A DNA stretch of 16,029 nucleotides, taken from a virus. Below the pieces are notes generated by a model. It was not told the DNA's origin. It searched no databases and saw nothing but the letters and a program-made list of their open reading frames with translations. The position numbers were made by a program, and so were the translations under genes. The stretch's first letter is position 1. Each line of letters begins with the position of its first letter. The DNA lies in the UHGV virus genome UHGV-0264118, one strand, 5' to 3'. This document shows, piece by piece, positions 8,018 through 11,841 of this stretch.

Positions 8018-8316
8018 CGGGCAAAGAGGCAATTATTCATTACCTGGGGACTCATAAGAAATTCTGTGCGCAGGACGTTGCCGCGGTAACAGGCGCAACG
8101 GTAACCAGCATAAATCAGGCTGCGGCTAAAATGGCACGGGCAGGTCTTCTGGCTATCGAAGGTAAGGTCTGGCGAACGGTGTATTACCGGTTTGCTACCA
8201 GAGAAGAACGGGAAGGAAAGGTGAGCACGAATCTGATTTTTAAGGAGTGTCGCCAGAGTGCCGCGATGAAACGGGTATTGAGGGTATATAAAAGAACATC
8301 AATGGGTACACAATGA
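8014..8316 (+). CDS. ren: Ren protein
   Basis: 100-aa translation MTGKEAIIHYLGTHKKFCAQDVAAVTGATVTSINQAAAKMARAGLLAIEGKVWRTVYYRFATREEREGK... matches lambda Ren. Start overlaps the P stop. Confidence 0.85.
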   Translation: MTGKEAIIHYLGTHKKFCAQDVAAVTGATVTSINQAAAKMARAGLLAIEGKVWRTVYYRFATREEREGKVSTNLIFKECRQSAAMKRVLRVYKRTSMGTQ

Positions 8317-8383
8317 TGAAACAGGTGAGTTGAGTTCAAACTGTAGTACAATTCTCTCCAGTTTGAACAGGAAAGAATATTCT

Positions 8384-8716
8384 ATGAACCCTTATATTTA
8401 TCTTGGTGGTGCAATACTTGCAGAGGTCATTGGTACAACCTTAATGAAGTTTTCAGAAGGTTTTACACGGTTATGGCCATCTGTTGGTACAATTATTTGT
8501 TATTGTGCATCATTCTGGTTATTAGCTCAGACGCTGGCTTATATTCCTACAGGGATTGCTTATGCTATCTGGTCAGGAGTCGGTATTGTCCTGATTAGCT
8601 TACTGTCATGGGGACTTTTCGGCCAACGGCTGGACCTGCCAGCCATTATAGGCATGATGTTGATTTGTGCCGGTGTGTTGGTTATTAATTTATTGTCACG
8701 AAGCACACCACATTAA
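8384..8716 (+). CDS. emrE: SMR-family multidrug efflux transporter EmrE
   Basis: 110-aa translation from the ATG at 8384 (MNPYIYLGGAILAEVIGTTLMKFSEGFTRLWPSVGTIICYCASFWLLAQTLAYIPTGIAYAIWSGVGIVLISLLSWG...) matches E. coli EmrE with its four transmembrane helices. The predicted ORF starts earlier at 8330. Confidence 0.95.
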   Translation: MNPYIYLGGAILAEVIGTTLMKFSEGFTRLWPSVGTIICYCASFWLLAQTLAYIPTGIAYAIWSGVGIVLISLLSWGLFGQRLDLPAIIGMMLICAGVLVINLLSRSTPH

Positions 8717-8747
8717 AAATAATTTGTTTCTAAACGACTAAAATATG

Positions 8748-8780
8748 GAGGCTCTTATATTTATATGAGCCTCGTTTTAT
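8748..8780 (+). terminator. Rho-independent terminator downstream of emrE
   Basis: Perfect 7-bp stem GAGGCTC (8748-8754) / GAGCCTC (8767-8773) with a 12-nt loop, followed by GTTTTATGCTTTTT. Confidence 0.6.
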
Positions 8781-8972
8781 GCTTTTTGTTAATGTCTTTA
8801 TTTTTTTATGTATTCTTTTGTGCTTTCAAGATTATGGCGTAAGAAAATTGCAATACGATTATTGTTGTATATTCAAGATAATGTGACCTTAATTGTCTTT
8901 TTAAATAAAAATTAAACAAAAATTATATCCCACCACTAAGGTTTATAAAAGCATACGTTAGCAGGTGTCACC

Positions 8973-10499
8973 ATGAAAAAAGCCATAGCATATATGCGAT
9001 TTTCATCACCAGGTCAGATGTCTGGCGACTCATTAAACCGACAGAGAAGACTTATTGCTGAATGGTTAAAGGTAAATAGTGATTATTATCTTGATACCAT
9101 AACATATGAAGATTTAGGATTAAGTGCATTCAAAGGAAAGCATGCACAATCAGGAGCTTTTTCGGAATTTTTAGATGCTATAGAGCATGGTTATATATTG
9201 CCAGGAACTACATTGTTAGTTGAAAGTCTGGACAGACTTTCAAGAGAAAAAGTCGGTGAAGCGATTGAACGTCTGAAATTGATTTTGAATCACGGTATTG
9301 ATGTTATAACTCTTTGCGACAATACAGTCTATAATATTGACTCTTTGAATGAGCCATATTCATTAATAAAAGCCATACTTATAGCACAAAGGGCAAATGA
9401 AGAAAGCGAGATAAAGTCAAGTCGGGTTAAATTATCATGGAAGAAAAAACGGCAGGATGCACTGGAATCAGGTACGATTATGACGGCGTCTTGTCCGAGA
9501 TGGCTCTCCTTAGATGACAAAAGAACGGCTTTTGTTCCAGACCCCGACAGGGTGAAAACTATTGAGCTAATTTTTAAACTCAGGATGGAAAGGCGCTCAT
9601 TGAATGCAATAGCCAAGTATTTAAATGATCATGCTGTAAAGAATTTCTCAGGAAAAGAAAGTGCATGGGGACCTTCTGTAATTGAAAAATTATTAGCGAA
9701 TAAAGCTCTGATAGGTATATGCGTACCTTCATATCGTGCAAGAGGTAAAGGAATAAGTGAAATCGCTGGCTATTATCCCAGAGTCATATCAGATGATTTG
9801 TTTTACGCTGTACAGGAAATTCGGTTGGCACCTTTTGGTATTAGCAATAGTAGCAAAAATCCTATGTTGATAAATCTACTTCGAACAGTTATGAAGTGCG
9901 AGGCTTGTGGTAATACCATGATTGTTCATGCGGTATCTGGAAGTTTGCATGGCTATTATGTTTGTCCGATGAGAAGACTGCATCGATGTGACAGGCCATC
10001 AATAAAGAGAGATTTGGTTGATTATAATATCATTAATGAGTTGCTTTTTAATTGTAGTAAAATCCAACCAGTTGAAAACAAGAAAGATGCTAATGAAACT
10101 TTAGAGTTGAAAATTATTGAGCTCCAGATGAAAATTAATAATTTAATTGCTGCATTATCTGTTGCGCCTGAAGTTACCGCTATAGCAGAAAAAATCAGAG
10201 TATTAGATAAGGAATTACGAAGGGCTTCTGTATCATTAAAAACTTTGAAGAGTAAAGCGGTGAGTTCACTTGGTGATTTTCATGCTATTGACTTAACCAG
10301 TAAAAATGGGCGAGAGCTATGTCGTACACTTGCCTATAAAACATTCGAAAAAATCATAATCAATACAGATAATAAAACCTGTGATATCTATTTTATGAAT
10401 GGCATTGTTTTTAAACACTATCCTTTAATGAAAACAATATCCGCCCAGCAGGCGATAAGTACTCTCAAATATATGGTTGATGGTGAGGTTTATTTTTGA
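8973..10499 (+). CDS. ybcK: Large serine recombinase (YbcK-like)
   Basis: 508 aa. N-terminal resolvase-type catalytic motif AIAYMRFSSPGQ (Y-x-R-x-S nucleophile). C-terminal Cys cluster (CEACGN...CPMRRLHRCD) and a coiled-coil segment typical of large serine recombinases. AGGTG Shine-Dalgarno upstream. Markedly AT-rich gene. Confidence 0.85.
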   Translation: MKKAIAYMRFSSPGQMSGDSLNRQRRLIAEWLKVNSDYYLDTITYEDLGLSAFKGKHAQSGAFSEFLDAIEHGYILPGTTLLVESLDRLSREKVGEAIERLKLILNHGIDVITLCDNTVYNIDSLNEPYSLIKAILIAQRANEESEIKSSRVKLSWKKKRQDALESGTIMTASCPRWLSLDDKRTAFVPDPDRVKTIELIFKLRMERRSLNAIAKYLNDHAVKNFSGKESAWGPSVIEKLLANKALIGICVPSYRARGKGISEIAGYYPRVISDDLFYAVQEIRLAPFGISNSSKNPMLINLLRTVMKCEACGNTMIVHAVSGSLHGYYVCPMRRLHRCDRPSIKRDLVDYNIINELLFNCSKIQPVENKKDANETLELKIIELQMKINNLIAALSVAPEVTAIAEKIRVLDKELRRASVSLKTLKSKAVSSLGDFHAIDLTSKNGRELCRTLAYKTFEKIIINTDNKTCDIYFMNGIVFKHYPLMKTISAQQAISTLKYMVDGEVYF

Positions 10500-10610
10500 G
10501 TAATAATCACTTTTTCAACCGTGCTATAGTAAGAAAGTTAGGTAAGTACAATAAAATTATCTATCCTGAACGAAGCGTCCTGAGCTATGGTTTTACTATA
10601 GAGACTGCCA

Positions 10611-10934
10611 ATGGATGCTGGCGTTCTCGTTCTAGCAGTTCAACAATACCCAATCACAAAACAATTCACTGATAACGAACTTTGCACACTCGCCTGGTTA
10701 TGGCGAGCAGGGAATGTGATGTTAATTACCTACCAGAACGTTACTCCTCTTCTTCAGGTTGCGGAGCATCGTGAAGCTGGTCGCTTCACTTCTATCGAGC
10801 AAGAATATCCCCAGATACTCAATAAGGCACAGGCAATCCTTGCCAGAGAAACGGCACATGTAAAATTCCGGCCGTGGCAGGATGATAAGTGGAGTCGAGT
10901 TTTGCCGCATTTACGTTCGGATCGATTACAGTAG
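10611..10934 (+). CDS. Hypothetical protein (107 aa), coding status uncertain
   Basis: ORF with a weak ribosome-binding site. No recognisable family. Flanked upstream by a 9-bp inverted repeat. Confidence 0.3.
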   Translation: MDAGVLVLAVQQYPITKQFTDNELCTLAWLWRAGNVMLITYQNVTPLLQVAEHREAGRFTSIEQEYPQILNKAQAILARETAHVKFRPWQDDKWSRVLPHLRSDRLQ

Positions 10935-11395
10935 ATTCCAATTAACAATGAGAAACACATAGCCACCCCGTGGTATTGAAACCATATAATGTTGGATTTG
11001 AAAACAGATCTTTTTCCATGTATTAATAACTACATCCCCGCGAGTGATTCAAAAAGGAGGGCCCAATTTTGTCCGAGTTTTTGTATTCCCCCGCATGCCG
11101 CTGCGGAGCACTACATCTGAGTGTCTGACTAGGGGATAAAATTAGACTGGATAGTGAGAAGAAAGTGGCGTGCTAGGCTGTGCCGAGTGCTACCAGTACA
11201 CCCTGGGGGTGTGCAGCTTTCGCCGAGACTGTAGTGGGTATCGGTTAATGCACGAAAAACCGAGAGGTCAGACAACCAATTTGCCGTAGGATTGTTTCCG
11301 GTGCGATACCGGTGTACTAACTGAAAGCAATGCGAAAAAGCATAAACTCGGTCCTTCAGTCGCCCTACACACTATTTACTAAGAAGGGCTAAAGC

Positions 11396-11752
11396 ATGGA
11401 TACAATTATCACATGGATGGGAGATCGTCTGTTGGGGTGGATAACAAACAAATCCGATCTGCGGCAGAGGGCAATCACTGGATTAACTCCTGCGATTTAT
11501 TCAACAATTTTATATACTGAAAAATTAAAACGTGGTGAGCCTAATAACCCAAACGAAGAAGAAAAACTTTATAGGCTTTGGTATGAAGCGTCTTCCCAAG
11601 TCGTAGACTTTGATCGAGAGCTGGCTAAAAGATGTTTAGATAAATCAGAATATTGGCTTCATTCTGAATTATATAGCCCTGAGAAAGTTGGAGAGCTAAA
11701 CATTTCTTTGGTTGGTATGAAGGCAACGCTTGAAGGAATAAAGCACAATTAA
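11396..11752 (+). CDS. Hypothetical protein (118 aa)
   Basis: AT-rich ORF (MDTIITWMGDRLLGWITNKSDLRQRAITGL...) with an AAGGG Shine-Dalgarno about 9 nt upstream. No recognised family. Preceded by a ~430 bp non-coding GC-richer region. Confidence 0.45.
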   Translation: MDTIITWMGDRLLGWITNKSDLRQRAITGLTPAIYSTILYTEKLKRGEPNNPNEEEKLYRLWYEASSQVVDFDRELAKRCLDKSEYWLHSELYSPEKVGELNISLVGMKATLEGIKHN

Positions 11753-11841
11753 AACCTTTGATTTGCGATAATCAACTCGCCATAATCATGTCATCGGAGC
11801 CTGAACAACTCCGGTGACTTCTGCGCTAAACGGGGACGTTT

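Follow-up and report, generated by a model that had tools for sequence, protein, structure and literature searches.

A conserved structured RNA in a variable gene slot of lambdoid prophages

Few bacterial RNAs are both large and intricately folded, and these have repeatedly proved to be ribozymes, riboswitches or protein-regulating RNAs. Here we describe a structured RNA of about 330 nucleotides (nt) in the virus genome UHGV-0264118, of which a stretch of 16,029 nt was analysed (the window, to which all coordinates refer). The RNA lies between two small open reading frames (ORFs) of 107 and 118 amino acids (aa), ORF107 and ORF118, within a segment flanked by genes of the type found in the DLP12 prophage of Escherichia coli K-12. 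An earlier note on this DNA had treated the stretch between the two ORFs as filler; on comparison with its relatives it is a conserved, selected element, namely a structured RNA gene.

The closest described systems are of several kinds. In type III toxin-antitoxin systems (ToxIN, CptIN, TenpIN) a promoter, an RNA, a terminator and a protein gene follow one another on one strand; the terminator sets the ratio of RNA to message, and the antitoxin RNA is a tandem array of 34-36-nt repeats that is cut by the toxin. Such systems occur on phages, prophages and plasmids, and the present locus shares the phage or prophage setting. An RNA, a terminator and a protein gene follow one another in most relatives, but in the window ORF118 comes directly after the RNA, with no terminator. 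The locus differs in that the RNA is one compact fold of 330 nt, the only direct repeat being an 18-nt chance pair inside ORF118, and in that the proteins behind it are unrelated, no ToxN/AbiEii-type model matching in PADLOC, Pfam or NCBIfam. Riboswitch and attenuator leaders, such as the cobalamin riboswitch and the T-box, likewise place a conserved structured 5' element and a terminator before varied downstream genes. Here, however, Rfam offers no match, no terminator/antiterminator alternative covaries with the RNA body, the window lineage has no terminator, and the RNA is kept before a truncated gene. A further mark of riboswitches is that the genes they control share one pathway linked to the ligand. 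The genes behind this RNA are mutually dissimilar and have no assigned function, which weighs neither for nor against.

Two further comparisons concern position and coding potential. HK022 put is an element of ~70 nt with two stem-loops, situated just after PL/PR. It and other processive antitermination RNAs are, like the present RNA, cis-encoded structured RNAs of a lambdoid early operon, upstream of terminators and of the nin/Q region. Compared with put, by position only, this RNA is longer (330 nt), lies after the replication genes and apparently has a promoter-like site of its own. Dual-function small RNAs (sRNAs) such as SgrS/SgrT also combine a structured RNA and terminator with a short frame and a good ribosome-binding site near the 5' end, but the frame found here is mixed in its substitutions and frameshifted in one lineage.

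GOLLD and ROOL, too, are large RNAs with elaborate structures and no assigned function, and prophages often carry them (PMC5737381). Their covariance models do not match this RNA, which is about half their size, does not lie beside tRNA genes, and occurs in lambdoid prophages of Enterobacterales, not in Firmicutes or rumen organisms. As no Rfam 15 family matches and none of the memberships tested holds, we rate the RNA as a new family without an assignable kind.

Conservation and fold of the RNA

The 107-aa ORF, the ORF-free stretch and the AT-rich 118-aa ORF reported earlier for this interval are all present. ORF107 occupies 10611-10934 and ORF118 11396-11752, and the gap between them measures 461 bp (10935-11395) and contains no ORF of at least 50 aa. 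Chance alone can give an ORF-free stretch of this length; it is conservation and covariation that mark the gap as non-random. Of 5,426 complete E. coli genomes, 159 (3%) carry the RNA, each in a single copy and none with an annotation for it; fewer, 95 of the 5,426, carry the entire cassette of RNA and both ORFs. It is also found in prophages of Klebsiella, Enterobacter, Citrobacter and Obesumbacterium, and both of the cultured phages Turner and IdasGreatGrand carry it. Its identity is 83% in E. coli 3426 and 78% in Klebsiella phages, with different flanking genes in each case. Exact-pattern scans returned 66 homologous IMG/VR loci and 28 metagenome loci, and look-ups through neighbouring proteins added copies from Enterobacter bugandensis, Obesumbacterium proteus and Citrobacter braakii; about 100 loci lie beyond the E. 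coli genomes (IMG/VR, metagenomes, genomes), at 77-100% identity. The range found is Enterobacterales, in scans whose exact patterns cannot reach distant relatives. A scan of one genome per species produced a single chance match, and the RNA is therefore strain-specific prophage cargo.

None of 4,227 Rfam 15 families matches at gathering thresholds anywhere in the window, a set that includes GOLLD, ROOL, riboswitches, the T-box, introns, tmRNA, RNase P, 6S, omega/HEARO RNAs and known prophage sRNAs, and with E values up to 10 the window copy and one terminator-bearing copy return only Rfam noise of 12-20 bits. ARAGORN reports no tRNA or tmRNA. Literature searches by topic and with the conserved 16-20-mers of the RNA, one recent preprint on mining non-coding elements not being covered, found no such element, and neither a preprint on prophage Pas sRNAs nor a paper on 224 motifs describes it. 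E. coli and the lambdoid prophages are among the most closely studied genomes, yet this pseudoknotted RNA of 330 nt went unannotated. K-12 and BL21(DE3) have ybcL-ybcM in this slot, so standard transcriptomes do not cover the RNA. It is open to direct testing, being carried by cultured phages and by ordinary E. coli strains (EC93 and enterotoxigenic (ETEC) isolates).

The comparison with TagO-type E. coli prophages, which have a VasI/TagO-like gene upstream, separates the RNA clearly from its surroundings. Within the RNA, 3 of 334 positions have changed, compared with 34 of 376 in all flanks (Fisher p = 2e-7), the latter comprising 15/89 in the remnant of a rha gene that includes ORF107, 5/97 in the spacer and 14/190 in the 5' part of ORF118; both helix changes within the RNA preserve pairing. 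Between genera the RNA is 80-82% identical, ORF118 71-75% and the flanks about 40-50%. By these alignments the RNA is a conserved, selected element and the slowest-evolving part of the cassette.

The features of the RNA are as follows:

11033-11361, + strand: structured RNA core of ~330 nt (alignment position n is window position 11032+n), from conservation, covariation and a strand test
11033-11138, + strand: RNA domain 1 (helices 1-5), closed by AUCCCC (11034-11039) and GGGGAU (11132-11137)
11054-11128, + strand: within domain 1, a Shine-Dalgarno (SD)-like AAGGAGG (11054-11060) and a candidate 19-codon frame from UUG at 11069 to UGA at 11128, from sequence and alignments
11124-11129, + strand: pseudoknot 5' strand UCUGAC in domain 1, perfect complement of 11267-11272 and 100% paired in 18 sequences
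11145-11361, + strand: RNA domain 2 (helices 7-17, with a multi-helix junction), closed by GACUGG (11145-11150) and UCAGUC (11356-11361)
11267-11272, + strand: pseudoknot 3' strand GUCAGA in a loop of domain 2, perfect complement of 11124-11129

In the alignments, extended blocks free of any change are separated by variable stretches whose substitutions come in pairs. RNAalifold, run on 12 sequences, gives 91 pairs, 17 of them with compensatory changes. When 18 distinct sequences were used and the pseudoknot was added, the 94 resulting pairs were 97.3% paired, against 30-46% with the partners slid by 1-3 columns. Double-sided changes occur in 24 of the 94 pairs (3-6 in the slid controls), and the covariation score of 0.228 (0.04-0.06 in slid controls) was reached by none of 500 shuffles. 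The strand test counted 184 G-U cells against 6 A-C cells, the + reading being 97.3% paired and the - reading 86.8%. Domain 1 varies little, by one-sided changes from G-C to G-U and in a few places by compensatory ones. Domain 2 holds most of the covariation; the helix at alignment columns 191-199/206-215 has double changes in 6 of its 9 pairs. The two strands of the pseudoknot lie in otherwise invariant loops; in the lineage of loci L100, L121 and L129 a C-G pair between them has become U-A, a change that simultaneously breaks a competing local hairpin. This comparative evidence establishes a + strand RNA gene of two domains, which a pseudoknot of 6-7 bp, with modest support, joins together.

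A hidden ORF or pseudogene in the gap was considered and rejected: the 31-48-aa ORFs there are unconserved, and a frame of 61-74 aa that is open in some relatives stops at codon 4 in the window. Depositors' hypothetical proteins of 43 and 39 aa lie inside the RNA gene (Turner, L006 3490-3790; IdasGreatGrand, L133 2866-3166; window 10989-11120 and 11170-11289). Their frames are unconserved in relatives and look like gene-caller artefacts. Gene callers put seemingly spurious proteins of 39-43 aa on the RNA, and it was the non-coding gap, not the small ORFs, that proved the informative part of the cassette.

Genes and terminators behind the RNA

Two features follow the RNA in the window:

11362-11395, + strand: junction, holding an intrinsic terminator in most relatives and the ribosome-binding region of ORF118 here (alignments and a census of downstream genes)
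11396-11752, + strand: ORF118, a small four-helix protein directly behind the RNA and co-oriented with it (phrog_12412; homolog clusters; AlphaFold2)

The census covers about 110 RNA loci. ORF118 follows the RNA, with no terminator between them, at 60 loci, to which 7 truncated forms are added. Behind a terminator stand a 178-aa protein (at least 10 loci) or a 183-aa protein (7 loci), and other cargo comprises a pair of 95 and 162 aa (5 loci), a 177-aa protein (2 loci) and an ordinary nin gene of the DUF1367 type (locus L014 only). These cargo proteins have no detectable similarity to one another, and shared ancestry of the differing downstream proteins, considered as a candidate, found no support in any detectable relationship. 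The cargo proteins of relatives match nothing in Pfam, PADLOC or NCBIfam, three of them falling into PHROGs of unknown function. PADLOC-DB 2.0 returned no match for ORF107, ORF118, YbcK or five cargo proteins of relatives.

In most copies outside E. coli the terminator lies 10-15 nt past the last helix, on the + strand, as CCGCC-loop-GGCGG followed by 7-8 U; at locus L054 it is called by the terminator scan. Its stem reads GCCACC/GGUGG at L014 and CCGCC/GGCGG at L011, with no matching change in the RNA body, which argues for a plain terminator and not a switch. In the window lineage and two other ORF118 lineages a homologous junction leading into ORF118 replaces the terminator. The TagO-type prophages have what reads as a terminator, a hairpin and T-run, upstream of the RNA, after the preceding VasI/TagO-like gene.

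RNA and cargo are associated without being bound to each other. The RNA is upstream of all ORF118 homologs of at least 69% identity (E. coli, Enterobacter, Obesumbacterium) and of a 67% Citrobacter homolog of the 183-aa protein. Distant homologs of both proteins occur without the RNA, and the RNA is 99% intact where the ORF118 behind it is truncated. The RNA recombines with differing cargo and the cargo families exist without it; it is therefore an independent module, in which neither partner needs the other. One candidate role, as guide or bridge RNA of the YbcK serine recombinase, was rejected, most carriers of the RNA having no ybcK nearby.

ORF118 has close relatives in 21 clusters within Enterobacterales. 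Eleven homologs, with identity down to 51%, align without gaps and leave 42 positions invariant, and by this pattern ORF118 is a real gene; its GC content is 38%. The AlphaFold2 model has four helices at a predicted local distance difference test (pLDDT) score of 79.5. No match was obtained in Pfam, NCBIfam or PADLOC, and a Foldseek search of the fold against the PDB gave nothing significant (best E 0.39). We considered ORF118 as a HEPN ribonuclease and rejected it: the family alignment has no conserved Rx4-6H pair, and the best HEPN structure match has a Foldseek E of 0.69. A profile search of 1.84 billion representatives found 353 distant clusters, mostly of 116-140 aa and also lacking Pfam domains. 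Distant homologs of 35-51% identity stand directly behind a gene resembling DNA polymerase III theta, near the integrase of other prophages and with no non-coding gap. In many E. coli prophages ORF118 is shortened to 66 aa or frameshifted.

Some minor observations concern the cargo. The 183-aa protein, like ORF118, has distant homologs behind the theta-like gene near the integrase (L082 55-656; L123 2759-3363; L128 2482-3504), a site that looks like a second accessory slot swapping the same small genes. The 178-aa protein (L054 9499-10035 and about 10 other loci) is the commonest partner of the RNA outside E. coli. A transmembrane (TM) helix is predicted at each of its ends (residues 4-25 and 140-168, approximately); it belongs to no family in the searches made, and tblastn against 50,697 phage records found nothing. 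A HEPN-like motif and a PIN-like motif in cargo proteins of relatives are leads only. Fold searches with cargo proteins gave nothing significant. Two RNA copies (L080 3985-4394 and L111 5283-5666) are changed at otherwise invariant positions in the SD, the first helix and the pseudoknot loop, and have no terminator. The next ORF there encodes 177 aa beginning MKNIIIDSNAW (phrog_26388), and these copies may be decaying.

Transcription and possible modes of action

One feature upstream of the RNA bears on its expression:

10998-11027, + strand: promoter-like site before the RNA, with -35 TTGAAA at 10998-11003, a TG-containing spacer and a -10-like hexamer within 11021-11027 (alignments)

Across relatives the first helix is preceded at constant spacing by a -35-like hexamer, which reads TTGAAA, TTGATA or TTGTAT, and by a -10-like hexamer that is rich in A/T and often has TG before it; the spacer between them diverges. 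The sigma-70 scan does not accept the site, and the promoter is inferred from this pattern. With moderate confidence we favour a self-standing RNA transcription unit whose product acts on a protein or on the ribosome and whose read-through expresses the cargo. The RNA would be its own short transcription unit. Transcription would start from a weak promoter of the extended -10 type, ~7 nt before the first helix, and would end in most relatives at the intrinsic terminator ~10-15 nt after the last helix. It would itself be the active molecule, most likely binding a protein or the ribosome via its long invariant single-stranded segments. Transcripts passing the terminator, which here would mean all transcripts, would also express the accessory gene behind the RNA. 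ORF118 took the terminator's place in this lineage, and we therefore propose that it is transcribed as a 3' extension of the RNA. Standing at the head of a slot where accessory genes are exchanged, the RNA may control or cooperate with the cargo.

Several observations weigh against such a unit. The sigma-70 scan calls no promoter in front of the RNA, and in the -10-like hexamer either position 2 is not A or position 6 is not T; with so weak a hexamer and an empty scan, the RNA may arise only by processing of the long early rightward transcript. The downstream gene starts ~25 nt past the terminator, which leaves no room for a promoter of its own and fits an operon of leader plus cargo at least as well as a free-standing RNA. 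As to the fold, the z-scores of the minimum free energy are unremarkable (-0.9 for the + strand, +0.3 for the - strand) and significant on neither strand, so that the case for the RNA is a comparative one. Sequence diversity is modest, at 77-100% identity and within Enterobacterales. The family is a mosaic, and many covarying cells therefore stem from few events and are not independent. The change seen in the pseudoknot is one event, which keeps its support modest.

The main rival, which we consider possible but doubtful, is that the RNA is a cis-acting leader (a riboswitch-like attenuator, a ribosome-sensing leader or an antitermination RNA like put or EAR) that sets expression of the gene behind it; in the window it would control ORF118 via translation or mRNA stability. 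This would explain the tight spacing in the order promoter-like site, RNA, terminator, ~25 nt, start codon. One constant RNA before many cargo genes is also what riboswitch classes present, and in all ORF118 homologs of at least 69% identity the RNA stands immediately before the gene, joined to it by a homologous junction. Domain 1 moreover contains a strong conserved SD and a short frame, whose translation would unfold that domain and the pseudoknot. On the other side, no antiterminator pairing is visible by inspection, and the terminator stem varies without compensation in the RNA body. The RNA is retained before a truncated gene or the ordinary nin gene of L014, and no cis-regulatory family of Rfam matches. 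At 330 nt it exceeds every riboswitch aptamer known to us. Should the RNA prove to be a leader or attenuator, it would belong to a known kind of regulator and form a new class within it; the novelty we claim is that of the RNA family.

A bolder version of RNA action, which we hold to be rather unlikely, would place the RNA at the centre of a modular prophage defence or counter-defence system. As its constant half, the RNA would sense or gate, would control or arm interchangeable effectors, and might engage the ribosome via its SD. Such a system would represent a new class of immunity module built of RNA and protein. The effectors would be the four-helix ORF118 and the two-TM, HEPN-like and PIN-like proteins of relatives. 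The RNA might otherwise be a new large ribozyme or a ribonucleoprotein scaffold.

Unlikely, too, is an RNA-plus-effector module resembling a type III toxin-antitoxin or abortive-infection system, in which the RNA neutralizes, or is sensed by, the variable protein and ORF118 is the effector in the window. As in type III loci, an RNA, a terminator and an ORF follow one another in most relatives, and the setting is a prophage accessory slot, but Tandem Repeats Finder returns 0 rows for tandem repeats in the RNA. The cargo proteins have no PADLOC, Pfam or NCBIfam match and no significant fold match. A near-identical RNA would also need to fit proteins that have nothing in common, and the variation in its helices does not follow which gene lies behind it. 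Finally, the RNA persists beside a broken ORF118, and both protein families exist without it.

Conservation might instead reflect a small-protein gene, the 19-codon frame, or a DNA-level element such as a recombination or replication signal; we judge this very unlikely. For the frame speak the very strong SD, the UUG start and the fixed stop, conserved in nearly all copies, and complementarity to the anti-SD is kept strong by differing flanks in two variants, AAGGAGG and GGAGGUG. However, the frame covers just 60 of the ~330 conserved nt. Its 13 variable sites are 8 non-synonymous and 5 synonymous, and the L100/L121 lineage, frameshifted by a 1-nt deletion, keeps the fold with compensatory changes. 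This substitution pattern does not support coding, and ribosome binding at the SD may still occur. As for a DNA-level element, strand-specific tolerance of G-U and compensatory pairs over 17 helices would not be expected of a double-stranded DNA site.

The earlier note's view, that both ORFs form an uncharacterised protein-based anti-phage system with the non-coding stretch as spacer, is scarcely credible and already largely refuted: the slot is indeed variable, holds something uncharacterised and includes in ORF118 a protein of no known function, but the ORF107 gene is a truncated Rha gene that is shorter still or missing at other loci with the RNA, the two ORFs are not found as a pair outside this lineage, ORF118 is cut short in many E. 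coli prophages where the sequence next to it is retained, its distant homologs stand alone elsewhere in prophages, PADLOC matches neither ORF, and the supposed spacer is the most conserved part of the cassette.

Cassette borders and the ORF107 remnant

The surroundings of the RNA comprise three further features:

10539-11756, strand not assigned: cassette replacing ybcL-ybcM of K-12 DLP12, between ybcK and ylcH/ybcN (blastn against K-12; K-12 and BL21 annotation; the slot of phage 4A7)
10611-10934, + strand: ORF107, 3' remnant of a rha-type antirepressor gene with the P22AR C-terminal domain only (Pfam, PHROG and Rha alignment)
11758-11786, + strand: promoter-like site of the ylcH-ybcN (nin) genes at the right cassette border (TTGATT-17-CATAAT in the promoter scan)

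RefSeq annotation of 100%-identical genomes bears out the DLP12-type flanks recognized earlier: ybcK on the left and, on the right, a 33-aa ylcH-like ORF, ybcN, ninE, ybcO and rusA. The K-12 arrangement given in the earlier note, with ybcL and ybcM in the interval, is likewise correct, the annotated order being ybcK-ybcL-ybcM-ylcH-ybcN in K-12 MG1655 and alike in BL21(DE3). By blastn, homology to K-12 has its last position at 10538 and returns at 11757; the swapped piece is therefore 10539-11756, or 1,218 bp against 1,813 bp in K-12. A swap had been placed at 10500-11841, and in this nucleotide alignment the swap stands while those borders prove slightly wide. The cultured Escherichia phage Turner carries the entire cassette at 99.8% identity. 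In phage 4A7 (NC_049946.1; L122 2501-3893) ybcK is followed by 278 bp matching window 10500-10782, a 347-aa esterase gene on the opposite strand, and ybcN. With at least three alternative contents (ybcL-ybcM, the RNA with ORF118, and the esterase) the slot is truly variable. Our best explanation, held as a whole at about even confidence, takes the interval to be a mosaic cargo slot holding three unrelated pieces: ORF107, the structured RNA and ORF118.

The promoter-like site at 11758-11786, at the cassette border, coincides with -35, -10 and regulator-binding features that record X92588 (phage 82) places before its ylcH/ybcN homologs. The nin-side genes therefore seem to have a promoter of their own.

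The statement that no ORF here could be assigned to a family fails for ORF107, a plain P22AR_C domain. It matches Pfam P22_AR_C (PF10548) at E 1.1e-15, above the curated cut-off, as well as phrog_7640 and anti-repressor Ant PHROGs. Aligned with the Rha of phage PhiR5_1, a protein of 249 aa, its residues 10-107 fall on 152-249 (82% identity, E 6e-60), and DNA homology to the rha gene starts at window 10624. Rha and P22-type antirepressors share with ORF107 the P22AR C-terminal domain. A full-length antirepressor of ~200-250 aa also has a DNA-binding domain of the Rha, Bro-N or ANT type, whereas ORF107, at 107 aa, has no N-terminal domain match in Pfam and lacks the N-terminal 150 residues, the DNA-binding half, making it a remnant and not a functional member. 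What is left is the C-terminal 40% of a Rha-type antirepressor, hence a gene remnant, and the alignments mark it as the dead, decaying remainder of an ordinary phage gene. In front of the same RNA, IdasGreatGrand still encodes 202 aa of it, whereas phage 4A7 retains just the first ~170 nt of ORF107, and the TagO-type E. coli prophages just the last 90 nt.

Further observations concern the left side of the cassette. Many E. coli prophages have the VasI/TagO-like gene (Pfam VasI, E 3e-6) on this side, followed by the final 90 nt of the rha remnant and then the RNA (L003 3309-3900; L002 3330-3900). A 58-aa ORF with a TTG start at window 10496-10672, in another frame, overlaps the ybcK stop and the ORF107 start; it matches no family, and we took it for a chance ORF. 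The genes emrE, ylcJ and ybcK (window ~8250-10650) form a low-GC island (28-40% GC) in a prophage of ~50% GC. Lying between ren and the rha remnant, this block looks like an insertion of its own and of older date, and phages Turner and 4A7 share both the block and an identical junction between ybcK and the rha remnant.

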